IMG/VR virus record: IMGVR_UViG_2740892439_000007
Span: 1 to 30,004 of that record
DNA length: 30,004 nt
Direction: 5' to 3' (one strand)
From: a virus
Taxonomy: Duplodnaviria; Heunggongvirae; Uroviricota; Caudoviricetes
Both the position numbers and the translations under genes were made by a program. Positions 6,933-26,777 of the stretch are shown here, one piece after another; position 1 is the stretch's first letter; each line of letters starts with the position of its first letter. Under the pieces are notes generated by a model that did not search any database, was not told where the DNA came from, and saw nothing but the letters and a program-made list of their open reading frames with translations.

Positions 6933-7322
6933 ATGGGCTTCCCTTCTCCTGCGGCGGATTATGCTGAGAGCCGTATTTCTCTTGATCAGCAGATAATTAG
7001 ACATCCTTCAGCGACCTACTTCATGAGGGCAGCTGATAGTCATCATCGTGAGGGAATATTACAGGGTGCATTGCTGGTGGTCGATTCCTCACTTACCCCG
7101 GTTGATGGTTCTCTGCTTGTATGCGCTCTGGATGGGGAATATCGCGTAAAAAGATACCGGAAGTACCCACGTCAGCATCTGGAGGATTTAAGAACCGGTA
7201 AGAAGGAAGCATTGCCAAAGGATGACGATGGATGCACGGGCAGCAATGCCGTGTTTGGTGTGATCACTCACATTATCAACGACGCAAGAAGTGGCGAGTT
7301 TGATGATTGTCCCGTGATGTAG
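6933..7322 (+). CDS. UmuD'-like S24 peptidase-family protein, encoded without the N-terminal cleavable arm (HumD-like)
   Basis: Begins M-GFPSPAADY, i.e. at the equivalent of the UmuD Cys24/Gly25 cleavage site; Ser (ADSH) and Lys (RVKR) of the catalytic dyad are present; no upstream in-frame start is available. Confidence 0.8.
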   Translation: MGFPSPAADYAESRISLDQQIIRHPSATYFMRAADSHHREGILQGALLVVDSSLTPVDGSLLVCALDGEYRVKRYRKYPRQHLEDLRTGKKEALPKDDDGCTGSNAVFGVITHIINDARSGEFDDCPVM

Positions 7323-7359: not shown

Positions 7360-8460
7360 TCACACTGCGCGGAATGCGATTTCGCCAGGTATTACTTCAC
7401 CTTGCCAATACATTTGGGCAGCAACGCGATCTGCGAGGTCACGATAAATAGCCGTAAATTCGCTATCTGGACGACTAATAACGGTTGGTGTTCCGTTATC
7501 CAGATCTTCACGAAGAGAGATATGAAGTGGCATTTGGCCTAACAACTGCGTGTTGTATTTCTCGGCCAGTTTCTGTGCGCCACCGGTGCCAAAAATTGGC
7601 TCGTGATGACCGCAGTTACTGCAAATATGCACACTCATGTTTTCGACGATACCCAGTACCGGCACTTCGACTTTTTCGAACATCACAATGCCTTTCTTCG
7701 CATCGATCAGCGCGATGTCTTGCGGCGTAGTTACCACAACCGCACCAGTTACAGGAATGTTCTGCGCCAGCGTCAACTGAATATCACCAGTGCCCGGCGG
7801 CATATCGAGAACGAGATAGTCCAGATCAGGCCATAGAGTTTCCTGCAACATCTGCATCAGCGCCTTGCTGGCCATCGGTCCACGCCACACCATTGCATTG
7901 TCGTCGGTGACCAGATAACCAATAGAGTTGGTTGCCAGGCCATGAGACATGATAGGTGCCATGTGAGTACCGTCAGGTGAGGTTGGACGTTGGTTTTCCG
8001 CTCCCAGCATGGTTGGAATTGATGGACCATAGATATCGGCATCCAAAATACCAACTTTCGCACCTTCAGCAGCCAACGCCAGTGCCAGGTTCACCGCCGT
8101 GGAGGATTTACCCACGCCGCCCTTGCCTGAGCTGACGGCGATAATGTTCTTAACGCCATTAATGCCTGGTTGGTTTTTGACGCGCTTAAGCGTGGCAATG
8201 TTGTACGACAGCTTCCAGTCAATAGCCTTTGCGCCAGTGATACGGAGCAGATCACCACTACATTGCTCTTTCAGGTCTTCAAAAGGCTTATTCCACACGA
8301 AAGGCATGATTAGTTCGACATGCAGTGTGTCATCCATCAACGCAACATGGTGTAACGCTTTAAGCGTAGTCAGGTTGTGTTTCAGGGTTGGGTGCTGAAA
8401 ATTAGCCAGCGTACCGGCTACCATTGCTCTCAGGGCATCCGGCGATTTGGACTCGCTCAT
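7360..8460 (-). CDS. apbC: Fe-S cluster carrier ATPase ApbC/Mrp
   Basis: 366-aa product with P-loop SSGKGGVGKS and C-terminal CxxC; near-identical to E. coli Mrp as recalled. Confidence 0.95.
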   Translation of the reverse strand: MSESKSPDALRAMVAGTLANFQHPTLKHNLTTLKALHHVALMDDTLHVELIMPFVWNKPFEDLKEQCSGDLLRITGAKAIDWKLSYNIATLKRVKNQPGINGVKNIIAVSSGKGGVGKSSTAVNLALALAAEGAKVGILDADIYGPSIPTMLGAENQRPTSPDGTHMAPIMSHGLATNSIGYLVTDDNAMVWRGPMASKALMQMLQETLWPDLDYLVLDMPPGTGDIQLTLAQNIPVTGAVVVTTPQDIALIDAKKGIVMFEKVEVPVLGIVENMSVHICSNCGHHEPIFGTGGAQKLAEKYNTQLLGQMPLHISLREDLDNGTPTVISRPDSEFTAIYRDLADRVAAQMYWQGEVIPGEIAFRAV

Positions 8461-8617
8461 CCCGTCTCCTTTATTTTAATTTGCGCAATTGTCGCCTTGT
8501 AGTGTACTCCAGCTACGACATTTAATCATTTATGAGAAATGCTGTTATCACATGGCAGACATAAGGCCATTTTGTTACTATCAAGCCCCTTTTCACTACA
8601 AAGAAGTAATGCCTACT

Positions 8618-10651
8618 ATGACCCAAGTCGCGAAGAAAATTCTGGTGACGTGCGCGCTGCCGTACGCTAACGGCTCAATCCACCTCGGCCATATGCTGGA
8701 GCACATCCAGGCTGATGTCTGGGTTCGTTACCAGCGAATGCGCGGCCACGAGGTTAATTTCATCTGTGCCGACGATGCCCACGGTACGCCGATCATGCTG
8801 AAAGCACAGCAGCTTGGTATCACACCGGAGCAGATGATTGGCGAAATGAGTCAGGAACACCAGACTGATTTCGCAGGCTTTAACATCAGCTATGACAACT
8901 ATCACTCGACGCACAGCGAAGAGAACCGTCAGTTGTCTGAGCTTATCTATACTCGCCTGAAAGAGAACGGTTTTATTAAAAACCGCACTATCTCTCAGTT
9001 GTACGACCCGGAAAAAGGCATGTTCCTGCCGGATCGTTTTGTAAAAGGCACCTGCCCGAAATGTAAAGCGCCAGATCAATACGGCGATAACTGTGAAGTC
9101 TGCGGCGCGACCTACAGCCCGACTGAACTGATTGAGCCGAAATCGGTAGTTTCTGGCGCTACGCCGGTAATGCGTGATTCTGAACACTTCTTCTTTGATC
9201 TGCCCTCTTTCAGCGAAATGTTGCAGGCATGGACCCGCAGCGGCGCGTTGCAGGAGCAGGTGGCGAACAAAATGCAGGAATGGTTTGAATCCGGCCTGCA
9301 ACAGTGGGATATCTCCCGCGATGCGCCTTACTTCGGTTTTGAAATTCCGAACGCGCCGGGCAAATATTTCTACGTCTGGCTGGACGCGCCGATTGGCTAC
9401 ATGGGTTCCTTCAAGAATCTGTGCGACAAGCGCGGCGATACCACCAGCTTCGATGAATACTGGAAGAAAGACTCCACCGCCGAGCTGTACCACTTCATCG
9501 GTAAAGATATTGTTTACTTCCACAGCCTGTTCTGGCCTGCCATGCTGGAAGGCAGCAACTTCCGCAAGCCGACCAACCTGTTTGTTCACGGCTATGTGAC
9601 GGTGAACGGCGCGAAGATGTCCAAGTCTCGCGGCACCTTTATTAAAGCCAGCACCTGGCTGAATCATTTTGACGCCGACAGCCTGCGTTACTACTACGCT
9701 GCGAAACTCTCTTCGCGCATTGATGATATCGATCTCAACCTGGAGGATTTCGTTCAGCGCGTGAATGCCGATATCGTGAACAAAGTGGTTAACCTGGCCT
9801 CCCGTAATGCAGGCTTTATCAACAAGCGTTTTGACGGCGTGCTGGCAAGCGAACTGGCTGACCCGCAACTGTACAAAACCTTTACTGATGCCGCTGAAGT
9901 GATTGGCGAAGCATGGGAAAGCCGCGAATTTGGTAAAGCTATCCGTGAAATCATGGCATTGGCTGACCTGGCTAACCGCTATGTCGATGAACAGGCTCCG
10001 TGGGTGGTGGCGAAGCAGGAAGGACGCGATGCCGATCTGCAGGCGATTTGCTCTATGGGCATTAACCTGTTCCGCGTGCTGATGACGTACCTGAAGCCGG
10101 TACTGCCGAAACTGACTGAACGTGCAGAAGCATTCCTGAATACAGAACTGACCTGGGATGGTATCCAGCAACCGCTGCTGGGCCATAAAGTGAATCCGTT
10201 CAAGGCACTGTATAACCGTATCGATATGAAGCAGGTTGAAGCACTGGTGGAAGCATCTAAAGAAGAAGTGAAAGCAGCTGCCACGCCAGTAACTGGCCCG
10301 CTGGCAGATGATCCGATTCAGGAAACCATCACCTTTGATGACTTCGCCAAAGTTGACCTGCGCGTGGCGCTGATTGAAAACGCAGAGTTTGTAGAAGGTT
10401 CTGACAAACTGCTTCGCCTGACGCTGGATCTCGGTGGTGAAAAGCGTAATGTCTTCTCAGGCATCCGTTCCGCTTATCCAGATCCACAGGCACTGATTGG
10501 TCGTCACACCATTATGGTGGCTAACCTGGCACCACGTAAAATGCGCTTCGGTATCTCTGAAGGCATGGTGATGGCTGCTGGCCCTGGCGGGAAAGATATC
10601 TTCCTGTTAAGCCCGGATGTCGGTGCTAAACCTGGCCACCAGGTTAAGTAA
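8618..10651 (+). CDS. metG: Methionine--tRNA ligase
   Basis: [25 protein letters not shown] (HIGH motif), KMSKS, C-terminal tRNA-binding domain; near-identical to E. coli MetG as recalled; the track ORF start at 8489 is an upstream alternative codon. Confidence 0.97.
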
Positions 10652-18303: not shown

Positions 18304-18828
18304 TTAAAATGGAAGGATTCGTTCAACCCAATCGAAGAAAACAAGTATTTTTCTGCCGTCTTCTAACTTAAGAGTGACCTGGCAAGCATCAACGCCTCTT
18401 GACACCCCTTCAATTTCACGACCGTCTGCCATGTAGACCCTTATAGATTGGTCGTTTTGATAAGCCTTGCGACATATCGCAAAAAAGTCACGGCGTGATG
18501 GCTGATTGTCAACATAGTCTGGATGTATTGTTAGCCTACCTTTGAACTCGCGAGCAATGCCATCGATTACACCTGATTCAATTGTGCTAATGCGCTCAAG
18601 TGGGAGTCTTATACGATTTTCTTTATCATATGGAAGCGGGCATAAATCTAGCTTATTGCGGGAAGGCATTGTCCCCTGAACGTACATGCAAAACACCTGA
18701 CCGTCTTCAAGCGTGACTCTTACAGGAATGTTGTTCTTCCGCCAGAACATAAGTATGTTTTCAGCATGTTCGTAGTCTCGCGGCCAGACTTCAGCCGGTA
18801 TGCCGTAGGTGATGTCCGATGTTCTCAT
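18304..18828 (-). CDS. Tandem Rof (YaeO)-like domain protein (174 aa)
   Basis: Two internal repeats each resembling E. coli Rof as recalled (DY...LEDG ... ExRxRLxxIS/T): VRVTLEDGQVF...ENRIRLPLERISTI and IRVYMADGREI...VTLKLEDGRKILVFFDWVERI. Confidence 0.55.
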   Translation of the reverse strand: MRTSDITYGIPAEVWPRDYEHAENILMFWRKNNIPVRVTLEDGQVFCMYVQGTMPSRNKLDLCPLPYDKENRIRLPLERISTIESGVIDGIAREFKGRLTIHPDYVDNQPSRRDFFAICRKAYQNDQSIRVYMADGREIEGVSRGVDACQVTLKLEDGRKILVFFDWVERILPF

Positions 18829-22869: not shown

Positions 22870-23530
22870 GCAAATACATCATCAACGTATCGTTTCAGAC
22901 ACGCGTAAATAAAACCACGCGCACGTTGGAAATCGCTGAGTCGTTCGGGCTTGGCCTGGACGAAAAAGAGTGGACGCTTTACGACAATCTGGAGCTGGAA
23001 GTGAAGCAGGGCGATGTGGTGTACATCACCGGCCAATCCGGTTCCGGCAAATCCGTTGTGCTGCGCGAGTTGCAACGACAGATGAAGGATGAAGGGCTGT
23101 CTGTAGCTCCATCGATGATTTTACCTTCGATAATGAGGTTAACGTCATCGATCAGTTGGGCAAAACGACCAGCGATGCGCTTGGGTTGTTATCTATGGCA
23201 GGTCTGAACGATGCATATCTGTTTGTTCGCAAGCCTTCTGAAATGTCAGACGGTCAGAAATATCGTCTCAAGATTGCCAAACTGATTGAGTCAGGCGCTA
23301 AAGTGTGGGCTGCTGACGAGTTCGGTGCTGTTCTAGACCGTGTAACCGCTCAGGTTGTGGCATCTAACCTCCAGCGTGCCGCTCGAAAGGTTGGTGCGAC
23401 GGTAATGGTGGCGACGACTCACGAAGACCTGAAGAACGCGCTGCGCCCGGATATGCAGATCACCAAGCACTACAAAGAACGCGCGAAGGTGGAATATCAC
23501 AATGGTAGTCATGATGAGGTTCATTTATGA
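22866..23530 (+). pseudogene. ABC-type P-loop ATPase interrupted by a -1 frameshift
   Basis: Walker A (GQSGSGKS) lies in frame 1; signature-like MSDGQK, Walker B (VWAADEF) and H-loop (TTHED) lie in frame 2; the frames switch near GGG at 23094-23096. Confidence 0.7.
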
Positions 23531-24417
23531 CGGACATCATCATTAAACGCTACCGCCCTGAAGAGTTTCCGCGTCATCTGGACTTTCTGGAGCGAATGAC
23601 TGTCACAAAGGGAACTGTAGAGGACTGGCACGCTCTTAAGTCGCTTCACTACAAAACAGACGGCAAACCTTTCGCGCCAACTTACTATCGCTGCGAACTT
23701 GATGACCGTCTGGTGGGCGTCGTGGTTATGGCTTACCCGAAACTACTGTTGGCACCTCGCCACCGCATGTTTCCTAAGTTGAAACCAACCACTAATACCA
23801 CCGTGGCTAACCAGTACTGGGGTCGGTACGTGAATAACAACTTTGCGGTGATCAGTCGCTCAGTTGTGGATACTCAGTATCGTGGCGTAGGCGTCTCTTA
23901 TCGAATGATTAACCTGGTTAGCAGGATGCATGACCGGCCAATCATTGAGATCCAGTCCTCGATGAGTAAATACAATCCCTTCGCCATGAAAGCAGGGTTT
24001 AAGTTCATCCGCCCTGAGCGACCGAAGAGCTATGAAAGTGCACTGCGTGTATTCCAGCGCCATTTCCGTTCCGACCCGGGTGATAACGAGGCGATCGTCA
24101 AAGAGTTGTTCGCAATGAGCGAGTCTCGTCGTCGCCGTGCACTGCGTGATCTGGTGGCGGACTACCACAAGAACAGTTCCCTGGCAAAAGCTGGGCGGAA
24201 TCGTGGCACGACGATTCAGAACATTGCCGACAGTCTGGTGGACGAGGCCAGCATTGTGAAGCTGCTCAAGGACATTCACAACCTGAGCTTTACGTCTCCG
24301 TTGTATGGTGTGTATCGAAACCCTGACTTTGGTCGTCGACTGCCTGACACGCTGCCACTGCTGGCATTCGACAAACAACCTTTGGATAAACCGTTAGAAA
24401 TTGCTTTACCGGCATAA
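23527..24417 (+). CDS. GNAT-fold acyltransferase-like protein (296 aa) with a C-terminal extension of unknown function
   Basis: Motif-A-like VISRSVVDTQYRGVGVSYRMINLV; ATGA overlap with the upstream gene. Confidence 0.55.
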   Translation: MTDIIIKRYRPEEFPRHLDFLERMTVTKGTVEDWHALKSLHYKTDGKPFAPTYYRCELDDRLVGVVVMAYPKLLLAPRHRMFPKLKPTTNTTVANQYWGRYVNNNFAVISRSVVDTQYRGVGVSYRMINLVSRMHDRPIIEIQSSMSKYNPFAMKAGFKFIRPERPKSYESALRVFQRHFRSDPGDNEAIVKELFAMSESRRRRALRDLVADYHKNSSLAKAGRNRGTTIQNIADSLVDEASIVKLLKDIHNLSFTSPLYGVYRNPDFGRRLPDTLPLLAFDKQPLDKPLEIALPA

Positions 24418-24426
24418 GGATTTGCC

Positions 24427-24693
24427 ATGACGTTAACCGATAAACAAAAGGACATTATCAAAACGCTCAATCTCGGTTATGAGCGAGGTCATTTACTTGA
24501 TCTGGACGAATTGCTTGAAGTTTTGCCGTACAAGACAACCAAGCAAAGTATCCAGTTCTCAATTCGCGCTCTGATAAAAAAGGGGCTGGTGGAGAAAGGG
24601 CATACGCGCCAACGCAGTGACAATCGCTATCACCGCCGAACTCTTGGGTTAACCACTTTAGGTCGAGCCAAAGCGAAGTTACTGGTGATGTAA
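24427..24693 (+). CDS. Small basic protein, putative winged-helix DNA-binding regulator (88 aa)
   Basis: aagga RBS; basic C-terminus; last gene before the late-operon control region. Confidence 0.55.
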   Translation: MTLTDKQKDIIKTLNLGYERGHLLDLDELLEVLPYKTTKQSIQFSIRALIKKGLVEKGHTRQRSDNRYHRRTLGLTTLGRAKAKLLVM

Positions 24694-24720
24694 TCGGTCT
24701 GGGAGCTTATTTAAAGACCT

Positions 24721-24769
24721 GCTTCTGTATATATAAATAATAAGTAACTTATTAAATATATACGGAAGC
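24721..24769. promoter_or_regulatory. 49-bp AT-rich imperfect palindrome (gcttctgtatatat ... atatatacggaagc)
   Basis: 14-bp outer arms with one mismatch and an inner dyad (aataagt a acttatt). Confidence 0.5.
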
Positions 24770-24811
24770 AGGCTTAATAAGACATGCCCAGACCTAATTA
24801 AACACCCCAGA

Positions 24812-24849
24812 AAACAAGTTGGTTAGCAGATGCAGTAAACAAGTTGTTT
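24812..24849 (+). promoter_or_regulatory. Two operators (24812-24824, one mismatch; 24837-24849, perfect) with centres 25 bp apart, upstream of the late operon
   Basis: Same AAACAA-G-TTGTTT family, but different spacing from the early cassettes and no extended -10 between them. Confidence 0.6.
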
Positions 24850-24850
24850 T

Positions 24851-24880
24851 AGAGCGCATGGACGCGCTCTGTGTGTTTTA
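24851..24880 (+). terminator. Hairpin (agagcgc atggac gcgctct) plus T-rich tract immediately upstream of TerS
   Basis: 7-bp stem followed by gtgtgtttta; the TerS RBS overlaps the T-rich tail. Confidence 0.5.
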
Positions 24881-24889
24881 GAGGGATCT

Positions 24890-25522
24890 ATGACGGTCGA
24901 AAAAGACGAGGTAAAAACTCGCCTGACACCAGCGGAGTGGGCCGAAGCTGAAGCCAAATGGACGTCAGGCGAATATACACTCTCAAAGCTGGAGGAAGAG
25001 TACGGCATTCGTCGTGAAACACTCTCCAGACATTTCAAAAAGCGAGGATTAGAGAAAGGCGCGGACTCTGTTGGGAAGATGGTTCGTGAGTCTCTTAAAT
25101 CTGACGCAGAGCTTCGCGCTAAAGCCCGTGCGGAAAAGATAGAAGAACGTCGTACACGTTATGACGGCTGGGCGTATGCGTTGGGGCAGATGGTGATGGT
25201 CGAAGTCACTACGGCCAAACGTGAGAGTAAGCCTTTAGGGGCGATTGAGGATTCTCTCAAGAGCTTACAGAGAGCCAGTAATACCCTTGCAAAATGCTTT
25301 GAAGTTTCGTCCAAAGCATTGGGCATGGATCATGCGGAAAATGACGAGGAAGAAATTCCGAACCTGGTATTTGGTGAGCTTACACCTTCCCAGGTGGCGA
25401 AATTACGTCAGGAAGACGACGAGCCTGAAATCATCGATGACGAATTGCTTGAGACGTTGGAAGAAGAAGCTCTAAGCGAATTTGATGCGACAGATGATGG
25501 AAGTGAAGGGGAGGACGAATAA
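24890..25522 (+). CDS. Terminase small subunit candidate (210 aa)
   Basis: Position directly upstream of TerL; acidic C-terminal tail; stop overlaps the TerL start. Confidence 0.6.
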   Translation: MTVEKDEVKTRLTPAEWAEAEAKWTSGEYTLSKLEEEYGIRRETLSRHFKKRGLEKGADSVGKMVRESLKSDAELRAKARAEKIEERRTRYDGWAYALGQMVMVEVTTAKRESKPLGAIEDSLKSLQRASNTLAKCFEVSSKALGMDHAENDEEEIPNLVFGELTPSQVAKLRQEDDEPEIIDDELLETLEEEALSEFDATDDGSEGEDE

Positions 25523-26777
25523 TGGCAATCCCGTCCTCGCTCAGTCTTGTGCAACTGCATTCTGGACAGATGAAAGTCTTCCAGTCTCCGCATCGATTTA
25601 AAGTTGTTTGTGCTGGTCGACGCTGGGGAAAATCCCGGTTGTCGATCTCCACTATTATTCGTGCGGCGGCAAAGGAAAAAAAGCAAAGGGTCTGGTATGT
25701 CGCTCCTACTTACCAGATGGCTCGCCAGATTTTGTGGGACGATCTACAGGAAGTTCTGCCTCGTAAGTGGGTTAGGAAAAAGAACGACACCACGATGACA
25801 ATCGTGTTGAAGAACGGTTCGGAGATCGCCCTCAAAGGTGCTGATAAGCCTGACACTCTGCGCGGCGTAGCGTTGCATTTTGTAGTGCTTGATGAATTTC
25901 AGGATATGAAGCTGACACCTGGTACAAGGTGTTACGACCTACTCTTTCATCGACACGCGGCGGTGCACTGATCATTGGTACGCCAAAAGGCTTCTCGGAA
26001 TTTCACAAACTGTGGACTATAGGCCAGAACGTAGAGTTGCAAAGAAAGGGACAGTGGAAGAGCTGGCAGTTTGTAACTGCCGATTCTCCGTTTGTACCTA
26101 CGGCGGAAATTGAAGCTGCTAAGAACGATATGGACCCCAAATCGTTCGCTCAGGAGTACCTGGCCAGCTTTGAGAACATGTCCGGGCGCGTTTACTACCC
26201 GTTCGATCGTAACGTGCATGTAAAACCGCTTCAGTTCAACCCTCGGTTGCCTATATGGGTAGGGCAGGACTTCAACATTGACCCGATGTCTTCAGTAATT
26301 TTGCAACCTCAGCCAAATGGTGAGCTATGGGCAATTGATGAATTGGTGCTCTTTTCCTCTAACACGGCAGAAGTTTGTGATGAGCTTGAGAGACGCTTCT
26401 GGCGCTGGAAATCACAGGTAACGGTATTTCCAGATCCGGCAGGTGCTTATCGCCAACATGCTCGTGGGGAGTCTGACGTAGACATATTCAAAGAGAAGGG
26501 ATTCTTACGTGTCGATTATTCGAAAAAGCACCCGCCAATTGCGGATCGTGTTAATGCTGTTAACCGAATGCTGATGTCCGCATCTGGAGATATCCGGCTG
26601 TATATCGATCCGAAGTGCAAGCATTTGATTGATTCACTGGAAAAAGTTATCTACAAGCCTGGAACACGAGATATGGATAAGACAGGTGGCATTGAGCATA
26701 GTGCAGACGCATTGGGCTATCCAGTACATCGTAGGTATCCAGTCAAAAACCGTGTTATTCTTGGTGGTTCTCGATAG
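25522..26777 (+). pseudogene. Terminase large subunit interrupted by a -1 frameshift
   Basis: Walker A (VVCAGRRWGKS) and Walker B (HFVVLDEF) in the first ORF; the second ORF's frame is open from 25896 and encodes the nuclease half. Confidence 0.8.

Follow-up and report, generated by a model that had tools for sequence, protein, structure and literature searches.

Late gene expression in bacteriophage lambda follows the scheme pR'-qut-tR'-Q, and the plasmid-prophage N15 has its own version of it, with p52, two terminators, a Q analogue and dispersed Sop centromere repeats; N15 reportedly carries dispersed inverted repeats, a late promoter and terminators before the first late open reading frame (ORF). 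Other replicons disperse a short operator. The C1 operators of P1 occupy more than 14 dispersed sites, with the P1 late genes reached only indirectly, through Lpa, and the KorB OB sites of RK2, a 13-bp palindrome TTTAGCSGCTAAA, occur at 12 places. Here we compare with these systems the spacer in front of the terminase small subunit gene (terS) of a phage-plasmid related to Salmonella phage SSU5. The DNA analyzed, referred to as the window, is 30,004 nt long (IMG/VR record IMGVR_UViG_2740892439_000007, positions 1-30,004), and coordinates are those of the window unless stated otherwise.

Around the spacer, identity of the window is 99-100% with many E. coli plasmids, 'Escherichia phage CMS-2020a' and Cyrano (pLF82), and about 80% with Salmonella phage SSU5, pHCM2, Yersinia pMT1 and Klebsiella phage-plasmids. 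On the basis of these identities, we regard the window as part of an SSU5-type phage-plasmid. As a complete reference we used the plasmid NZ_CP010144 (114,159 bp), to the reverse complement of which the window aligns with ~97-98% identity. Phage-plasmids of the SSU5-like kind occur widely in clinical E. coli, Klebsiella, Salmonella, Enterobacter and Yersinia (pMT1, pHCM2), and resistance genes are among their cargo. In the searchable literature we found no description of SSU5-type gene regulation or of a packaging site, and no paper on SSU5 ends, repressor, operators or late control; a heteroresistance preprint and an mBio paper on phage-plasmids contain nothing on the terS spacer locus.

The spacer comprises 196 bp (24694-24889) between a gene for an 88-aa protein and terS. 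A preliminary description, made from the letters of this DNA, had placed a palindrome, two operators and a hairpin before terS, and all three features were found at the positions given, non-random and conserved. It had also read them as lambda-type late control, and here the picture is mixed: a conserved spacer, an operator family and a hairpin with a U-rich tail do precede terS, but no sigma-70 promoter was found and the palindrome is not specific for late genes. We favor the view, with a probability of about one half, that the spacer is a composite of three independently conserved SSU5-type elements and not a dedicated lambda-like late switch. The features are as follows.

24427..24693, + strand: 88-aa gene, product predicted as a minimal winged helix-turn-helix (MarR-like fold; AlphaFold/Foldseek)
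24697..24793: extended imperfect palindrome of ~97 bp, GGTCTGGGAG ... CCCAGACC, one of three dispersed copies
24718..24772: palindrome core, imperfect, GC clamps CCTGCTTC / GAAGCAGG around an AT-rich centre
24808..24824, + strand: operator-type site 1, CAGA-AAACAAGTTGGTT (sequence CAGAAAACAAGTTGGTT), not in Klebsiella-type relatives
24833..24849, + strand: operator-type site 2, CAGT-AAACAAGTTGTTT (sequence CAGTAAACAAGTTGTTT), with a perfect 13-bp palindrome core, kept in all close lineages
24851..24870, + strand: leader RNA hairpin, loop AUGGAC (GGA at 24860-62), stem of 7-8 pairs, 5 GC
24871..24879, + strand: U-rich tail GUGUGUUUU (DNA GTGTGTTTT), 6 U in 9, in E. coli, Salmonella and K. pneumoniae types only
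24880..24892, + strand: Shine-Dalgarno (SD) sequence AGAGGG (24880-85) and ATG (24890), second GGA at 24884-86
24890..25522, + strand: terS, TerS-like DNA-binding protein of 210 aa (phrog_867), first gene of a packaging/head/tail block of ~22 kb

The leader hairpin of terS

The hairpin stem pairs AGAGCGC (24851-57) with GCGCTCT (24864-70) across the 6-nt loop ATGGAC, with a folding energy of -13.0 kcal/mol. Among close relatives, the stem pairs in 98% of cells, with one compensatory G-C to A-U change. Because MAFFT put the stems of deep lineages out of register, stem pairs were tabulated from individual folds instead, which gave four stem versions across lineages (GAGCGC/GCGCUC, GAGCAY/GUGCUC, CGGCGC/GCGCCG and GGCGUC/GAUGCC). 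Double changes were seen at 4 of the 6 stem positions, the deeper ones in lineages L137 and L133. The loop contained GGA in all eight lineages (as AUGGAC, AAGGAU, AAGGAA, AUGGAU or AGGAA), and UAGAGGGA(U/A)CUAUG, with a further GGA 24 nt 3' of the loop GGA, was invariant wherever the hairpin was present. Judging from this covariation, selection maintains the hairpin as an RNA structure of the obligatory terS leader. A 40-nt stretch around it scored z = -3.45, a value that belongs to a longer alternative pairing; this pairing would sequester the SD sequence (-15.2 kcal/mol), consists mostly of G-U pairs and was judged an artefact of the folding model.

Conservation of the tail has a different reach. 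The number of U in 9 positions is 5-6 in most E. coli, Salmonella and K. pneumoniae types and 3 in L027, and the tail is 95-100% conserved within these lineages. It is down to 3 U in L137 and 2 U in L133/L138, though the hairpin is kept by covariation; in L133/L138 a canonical terminator stands 5' of the operator instead. Since the deeper relatives keep the stem and the GGA loop and lose the U tail, termination is not the conserved function of the hairpin. The preliminary description had called it a terminator abutting the terS ribosome-binding site. With a conserved hairpin and U-rich tail, some termination is plausible in the window, but less so in the deeper relatives that have lost the tail. 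In the lineage of the window, the hairpin may terminate or attenuate transcription.

An exact 10-bp direct repeat, TGTTTTAGAG, at 24845-24854 and 24874-24883 brackets the hairpin. If the 29 bp that separate the repeats were removed, operator, SD sequence and ATG of terS would be arranged as is ordinary for the early genes, which suggests that the hairpin arose by local duplication or insertion.

In the lambda- or N15-type explanation, a late promoter is followed by the hairpin as terminator, which is overridden by a Q-like or other antiterminator, possibly the 88-aa protein. We consider this unlikely, even though the hairpin with its U-rich tail is the top terminator-like match within 23500-26000, the tail is so well conserved in the three types, the hairpin lies in the obligatory leader and a predicted winged-helix protein is encoded directly upstream. 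Expression data fit as well. In LF82 lysogens, CYRAN_119-123 (the cluster from ParB to the 88-aa gene) and CYRAN_1-4 (terS, terL, portal and the next gene) of Cyrano are at background (gene-level RNA-seq, PMC9928086 supplement). In macrophage samples of LF82, log2 values fall from 6.5 for the 88-aa gene through 4.9-5.6 for terS to 4.1 for terL (same supplement; low counts), a gradient that is compatible with read-through and attenuation.

Against this explanation stands the promoter. A sigma-70 scan of 23500-26000 returned 0 promoter-like sites, and none 5' of the hairpin. As the strict scan also missed the early cassettes, which rely on an extended -10, we additionally scored -10 hexamers by their offset from the operator motif, and neither terS operator had a -10-like hexamer upstream. 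GATAAT of the canonical cassettes corresponds to CCTAAT in E. coli and Klebsiella types, and the Salmonella type offers no counterpart. Among the 26 window ORFs scanned, from an element with a further ~80 kb outside the window, Pfam identified no Q-like or other antiterminator family. The proximal half of the tail (GUGUG) alternates G and U and is suboptimal for termination, and the tail is gone in L137 and L133/L138 while the hairpin stays. Late transcripts probably come in from upstream or start at an activator-dependent promoter without sigma-70 consensus.

The hairpin could also be the site of an RNA-binding translational regulator, with a CsrA dimer bridging two GGA motifs as in the glgC leader, or with an FljA-like protein in its place. 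This explanation, which we likewise consider unlikely, would account for the loop GGA in 8 of 8 lineages despite compensatory changes at four stem positions, and for the failure of deep relatives to keep the U tail. The Salmonella-type loop with its closing pair reads CAAGGAUG, the core (CARGGAUG) of the consensus RUACARGGAUGU obtained for CsrA by systematic ligand evolution through exponential enrichment (SELEX), where GGA lies in a 6-nt loop and a second site at the SD sequence (PMC7652899). Here, too, a second GGA is found in the invariant SD sequence UAGAGGGA, 24 nt downstream. CsrA is also reported to repress an SOS-induced lysis gene of ColE7 (PMC2896534).

On the other side, a stem of 7-8 GC-rich pairs (-10 to -14 kcal/mol) is far from the SELEX sites, which mostly have four pairs or fewer (PMC7652899). 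In addition, the E. coli-type loop AUGGAC fits the consensus less well, a GGA within an SD sequence is expected anyway, and the strong conservation of the U tail in the lineage of the window suggests an additional or different role. As to the FljA alternative, the window encodes a homologue of 174 aa on the - strand (18304-18828; PF03614, E = 5e-81), annotated as 'repressor of phase-1 flagellin'. FljA is an RNA-binding translational repressor; the FljA-like protein might act on host fliC or on a phage transcript, for instance the terS leader with its GGA loop.

Operator-type sites along the replicon

The two terS sites form a 17-nt direct repeat, 25 bp from start to start, and site 2 abuts the leader hairpin. 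Their 13-bp core, AAACAAnTTGTTT (AAACAA-n-TTGTTT), is itself palindromic. With up to 2 mismatches allowed, the core yields 27 strand-matches in the window versus 1.7 expected (16-fold), a number that none of 100 shuffles reached. Both the operator-like pair at terS and the pairs at early genes with a spacing of 51 bp (10736/10787 and 15412/15463) were thus located as the preliminary description had them.

In NZ_CP010144 we found about 20 sites with at most one mismatch. Nearly all are intergenic and lie 12-36 bp 5' of start codons, mostly those of genes in the main orientation; the genes include those for a DnaB-like helicase, nrdB, CobT-like, intein-containing and TerB-like proteins, a ParA-like ATPase and several hypothetical proteins. 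The structural block of ~22 kb in this plasmid contains no operator motif in its interior. Alignment of the sites in gene direction revealed a common asymmetric extension, AGA-AAACAAnTTGTTT, usually with an SD sequence and start codon within 10-35 nt 3' of the motif. At ~6 of 14 sites a -10-like hexamer, often an extended TGnGATAAT, is found 12-14 nt upstream, so the motif would lie at about +10 to +25 or over the start point, which is the classical position of a repressor operator. Where a site has a distal second copy, this lies 51 bp upstream, near -35, in inverted orientation, and is often preceded by the terminator of the previous gene.

Lineage comparison footprinted both terS sites, and the 9 bp between them are just 33-67% identical. 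Relatives of the Klebsiella pneumoniae type contain only one copy, whose fusion point is exactly the one expected if the repeats had undergone deletion or duplication, and a single canonical copy is likewise present in L137 and L133. It follows that the 25-bp spacing reflects a tandem duplication specific to the lineage, and is not the sign of a different regulatory logic for late genes that had been seen in it. In two other lineages the sequence before terS departs from this form: L139 has an operator variant, AAACAGGATGTTT (~620-700), and L140 has the same half-sites at another spacing, AAACAATATA-N11-TATATTGTTT (620-700). These variants could help to find the cognate protein by co-variation.

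Alternatively, AGAAAACAAnTTGTTT might be the core of a phage-specific promoter or activator site for lytic genes, so that terS would have two tandem promoters and the hairpin would lie in its 5' untranslated region. The motif does stand 12-36 nt from start codons even inside operons (nrdA-nrdB, hyp-DnaB), its asymmetric AGA extension is conserved, and over half of the sites have no recognizable sigma-70 -10 at a fixed offset. In L133/L138, moreover, the strong terminator lies directly 5' of the motif, so transcription of terS must start within ~45 bp that hold little besides the motif. We nevertheless think this a distinctly poor prospect: a perfect palindrome, used in both orientations and flanking -10 elements, is typical of operators for dimeric proteins, several sites have a good extended -10 (TGcGATAAT) 13 nt upstream, and the related records examined list neither a phage RNA polymerase nor a sigma factor among their annotations.

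If the AGA-AAACAAnTTGTTT sites are operators, one dimeric DNA-binding protein would act at ~20 promoters of early, replication, nucleotide-metabolism and partition genes. With one or two copies at terS, the whole late block would be wired directly into that regulon. Position and site family are observed; a protein bound at the terS sites would be expected to block initiation or read-through.

Three candidate binders can be named: the 88-aa winged helix-turn-helix protein, a ribbon-helix-helix-like protein of 117 aa encoded after ParA, and a helix-turn-helix (HTH) protein of the CYRAN_45 type. The ParA-like ATPase gene (NZ_CP010144 107656-108731 with upstream sequence) has the motif 36 bp 5' of its start, and the second gene of its operon encodes the 117-aa protein, with a ribbon-helix-helix-like motif at its N-terminus. 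The 117-aa protein might act as a global regulator and bind the centromere, and a scheme with a partition protein as global regulator is conceivable by analogy to KorB or omega. The control region of the putative prophage repressor (HTH gene beside the integrase gene, NZ_CP010144 88041-88330) contains a palindrome CGGTAAGCACTTACCAG and GGTAAG/CTTACC half-sites. With the repressor having a palindrome of its own, the element has at least two separate operator systems.

The palindrome and its copies

The outer arms of the palindrome core are CCTGCTTCyGTATATAT / ATATATACrGAAGCAGG, its inner arms are TAATAAGT-a-ACTTATTA, and the extension of the core runs GGTCTGGG...CCCAGACC. When folded as RNA, a 67-nt stretch with the core reached -30.5 kcal/mol (z = -9.7) and a 107-nt version of the palindrome -50.6 kcal/mol (z = -10.8); in both cases none of 200 shuffles was as stable. 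An AT-rich palindrome is thus present where one of 49 bp had been reported, and that size was too small for what is really ~97 bp.

The palindrome was found in about 800 plasmids of PLSDB, typically with 4 matched 'places' per record, which amounts to two or more sites, since a palindrome matches on both strands. Some plasmid records match the spacer through the palindrome alone. NZ_CP010144 has exactly three copies, all of the same polarity:

NZ_CP010144 24762-24816: copy 1, upstream of terS
NZ_CP010144 54182-54236: copy 2, between an adenine methyltransferase gene and a 76-aa ORF
NZ_CP010144 106670-106724: copy 3, between the hyp-DnaB-helicase-primase operon and a divergent 255-aa gene

Copy 3 lies 1.3 kb from the ParA-like ATPase gene, and the copy in the methyltransferase context is also present inside SSU5 (78.3 kb) and Cyrano (78.1 kb). 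Among 119 stretches of viral contigs with a palindrome arm, every true palindrome was in one of the same three contexts; single-arm matches in 5 viral contigs were chance matches and not palindromes. As each replicon holds three copies, in three conserved contexts, the palindrome does not belong to the late operon in particular, contrary to the earlier assignment. On the 3' side of the methyltransferase-context copy, before the 76-aa ORF, we noted a 14-bp perfect palindrome, TAAAATCGATTTTA (Cyrano 78203-78233).

In a dozen contigs, homology to NZ_CP010144 ends exactly at the palindrome, and at the DnaB-context copy the 255-aa gene is present or absent precisely at the palindrome edge (L015, L033, L034, L074, L098 and others). 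Given the breaks in homology and the gene loss at the edge, the palindrome behaves as a recombination or module junction. Among its 38 distinct variants, the GC clamps and the adjacent TATATA are nearly invariant. Where one arm has changed (CCTGCaTC, CCTGCgTC, GAAaCAGG), the opposite arm shows no compensating change. Copies of one genome share lineage-specific inner sequence (L027/L072; L064/L093), which indicates homogenization or co-evolution with a common factor. Identity of the core across lineages is 88-96%, compared with 71-88% for the adjacent 88-aa coding sequence and 38-86% for the flanking spacer. That the core is more conserved than its neighbors favors recognition of the sequence itself, not of a mere hairpin shape.

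Searches for known elements returned little. Rfam 15 gave 0 matches at the gathering threshold over the whole window, and in a permissive Rfam search only chance matches of microRNA precursors to the long hairpin appeared. A LexA box was rejected, as the arms start with CTGTATATAT, a half box, but the ACAG partner is ~47 bp off; an integration host factor site was rejected, as by eye the AT-rich centre has no match to WATCAANNNNTTR. In the left arm (24732-24739), all three copies read TATAAATA in gene direction. We take this octamer to be identical to the T4 late-promoter consensus, a likeness that is probably a coincidence of AT-rich sequence.

Deeper relatives have an unrelated large hairpin directly 3' of their 87-90-aa gene. 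At the position of the palindrome we find:

L136: hairpin of 46 nt
L142: inverted repeat of ~85 nt
L134/L135: AT-rich inverted repeat of ~110 nt
L133, L138: hairpin with U8-type tract, as in a textbook case of intrinsic termination

In 30 Klebsiella plasmids the L138-type element occurs once each, and the L136-type palindrome has no match in PLSDB. In the lineage of the window and in gene direction, the methyltransferase copy is followed by CUGUUUUAU, the DnaB copy by UCUUUUAAAA and the terS copy by CUUAAUAAG (elsewhere among the lineages, by different sequence that is also not a U tract). From this comparison of sequences, it is plausible that the position of the palindrome has a boundary or termination-type function. 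The terS copy is no canonical terminator in either direction. Of the earlier proposal of a second protein-binding site or a bidirectional terminator, a terminator-type role at this position is supported by the hairpins of relatives, two lineages of which have canonical U tracts, and is not supported by the terS copy, which has no U tract on either side.

A role in packaging is very unlikely. In such a scheme the terS-proximal palindrome would be a cos- or pac-like recognition or cleavage site, with the repeated motifs as cosB-like sites for terminase binding. Cos sites typically lie just upstream of terS and have twofold symmetry, some palindrome is found at this place in all relatives examined, and the GenBank record of SSU5, which derives from virions, ends within the palindrome, as a cos site just 5' of terS would look. 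Its first base is equivalent to 24755 and its last to 24754, in the right half, at the boundary of inner and outer right arm and 134 bp 5' of terS; the record of Cyrano starts at the equivalent of 24756. One objection is that two further near-identical copies exist per genome, internally also in SSU5 and Cyrano, so that cleavage of every copy would break the chromosome into pieces. Cyrano was deposited as a re-annotated plasmid, and the start of its record, probably taken over from SSU5, adds no independent evidence. Compared with the plasmid forms, the SSU5 record has no base duplicated and none missing, and it breaks where the sequence turns into the reverse complement of an arm already read, a likely break point in assembly that explains the start equally well. 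The 13-bp motif, spread over ~20 gene starts, is not terminase-specific, the TerL relatives (T5-, T7- and Jersey-like, at 25-28% identity) lend no support to a cos mode, and the searchable literature holds no paper on SSU5 genome ends.

Together, the above observations are consistent with a composite spacer, in which the palindrome would be one of three same-polarity boundary repeats of ~97 bp at operon or module junctions. The terS copy would mark the end of the ParB-ABC-296aa-88aa cluster, most likely as a transcript-end or processing hairpin or else as a site for a sequence-specific protein. The U-rich tail would let the leader hairpin act as a leaky intrinsic terminator or attenuator in the lineage of the window, and the stem, loop GGA and SD GGA point to an RNA-binding factor that controls translation or the fate of the mRNA.

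Several points weigh against a composite of this kind. No terS promoter was found, either by the strict scan or by scoring -10 hexamers by offset, and the binding proteins of palindrome and operator are hypothetical. The terS palindrome copy has no U tract in either direction, and the uncompensated arm changes argue against a simple RNA-hairpin role for it. At the putative prophage repressor gene (CYRAN_45 type), the control region contains another palindrome, GGTAAGcaCTTACC, and, when inspected for an operator of its own gene, lacks the 13-bp motif AAACAAnTTGTTT. The ParA-like operon is expressed in lysogeny despite its motif (LF82; PMC9928086), so the motif is not simply the operator of a lysogeny repressor. 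The LF82 RNA-seq has low counts and is at gene level only, and with 7-8 GC-rich pairs the stem exceeds typical CsrA-type sites in stability (PMC7652899).

A more elaborate two-layer scheme can be drawn, which we rate as improbable. The ~20 AGAAAACAAnTTGTTT sites would tie replication, partition and the virion operon to one protein, the 97-bp palindrome would be a recognized boundary, origin or packaging element, and host CsrA or the FljA-like protein of the element would gate translation of the packaging genes via the GGA-loop hairpin of the terS leader. If this were true, virion production would be coupled to host physiology via the terS leader.

Gene context and comparison with known systems

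The 88-aa gene keeps its position upstream of the spacer in all relatives examined. It is the last of a series of co-directional genes, after two for ParB-N-domain proteins, an ABC ATPase and a 296-aa protein, and this gene order persists in relatives with TerS at just 50-62% identity. Homologues of the 88-aa protein are confined to SSU5-like elements; it matches phrog_900 (function not assigned) and has no match in Pfam. As a sequence search against the PDB gave only a marginal match (E = 0.21), its fold had to be sought with a structure search. The AlphaFold model (predicted local distance difference test 81.7) matched MarR/MepR/ZitR-type proteins in Foldseek against the PDB, with template modelling scores of 0.69-0.76 and E-values of 2e-4 to 1e-3. 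The 88-aa product is thus predicted to be a winged-helix DNA-binding protein.

The TerS-like protein matches phrog_867 with E = 7e-100 and is annotated as terminase small subunit in Cyrano. On the 3' side of terS follow TerL (Terminase_6N/6C) and then portal. The nearest characterized relatives of TerL are T5-, T7- and Jersey-like, at only 25-28% identity.

Relative to NZ_CP010144, the window has four 1-bp deletions in GG/CC runs (20476, 23107, 25911 and 27994). Each splits one gene into two ORFs, namely those for a DEAD/UvsW-like helicase, the ABC ATPase, TerL (25522-25971 and 25929-26777) and portal; they are either sequencing errors or marks of a decaying element. Host-like apbC/mrp (- strand) and metG, for methionyl-tRNA synthetase (+ strand), lie at 7360-10651 (annotation from NZ_CP010144), and an ORF with an S24 peptidase domain only at 6933-7322.

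The elements of the spacer are each of a known kind; their combination, the ~20-site regulon and the three-copy palindrome are not described in the literature found for this group. The candidate global operator and its regulon supply concrete sequences for asking what keeps these elements silent as plasmids, and the covarying GGA-loop hairpin before terS is a way to probe how virion production is gated. The three-copy palindrome marks module junctions and coincides with the deposited genome end of SSU5. The locus also illustrates how sequence by itself can lead astray when such a region is read in lambda style.

With the cosN/cosB region of lambda, the palindrome shares its place directly 5' of terS, its twofold symmetry and the end of the SSU5 record inside it. 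It differs in having three copies per genome, where cos needs a unique site, and in flanking repeats that are not locus-specific.

Like the early RNase III sites of T7 and the repetitive extragenic palindromic (REP) and enterobacterial repetitive intergenic consensus (ERIC) elements, the copies are related long hairpins between co-directional gene groups and appear homogenized within a genome, and their duplex length of 25-40 bp would suit RNase III. They differ from these in number and position, with only three copies at fixed syntenic places, one of them between divergent genes in many genomes. They also differ in a sequence that is more conserved than its neighbors and has no compensatory arm changes, and in having no Rfam match.

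The terS leader resembles CsrA leaders of the glgC type in its 6-nt loop with GGA and in the GGA overlapping the SD sequence, here 24 nt apart. Its stem is much more stable, and its U-rich tail looks terminator-like in the lineage of the window.

As in lambda and N15, the first packaging gene is separated from the region upstream of it by a terminator-like hairpin, and as in N15 a large inverted repeat from a dispersed multi-copy set is found just 5' of the late region of a plasmid-prophage. In contrast to both, no constitutive sigma-70 late promoter, Q-binding or pause element is recognizable in the spacer, Pfam found no Q homologue among the window ORFs scanned, and the U tail of the hairpin is not kept in deeper relatives. 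Further, the SSU5-type late leader has the same operator as the early genes, and, unlike the N15 repeats, its palindrome has no demonstrated link to a partition protein.

The operator-type sites compare best with P1 C1 and RK2 KorB. One short site is repeated at ~20 promoters over an SSU5-type replicon of ~110 kb, at replication, nucleotide-metabolism and partition genes, in promoter-proximal positions or paired around promoters, and as in KorB sites the central base of the 13-bp palindromic core is free. The site sequence is unrelated to either and the binding protein is only putative. Unlike in P1, the SSU5-type site stands directly before the terminase/structural operon.

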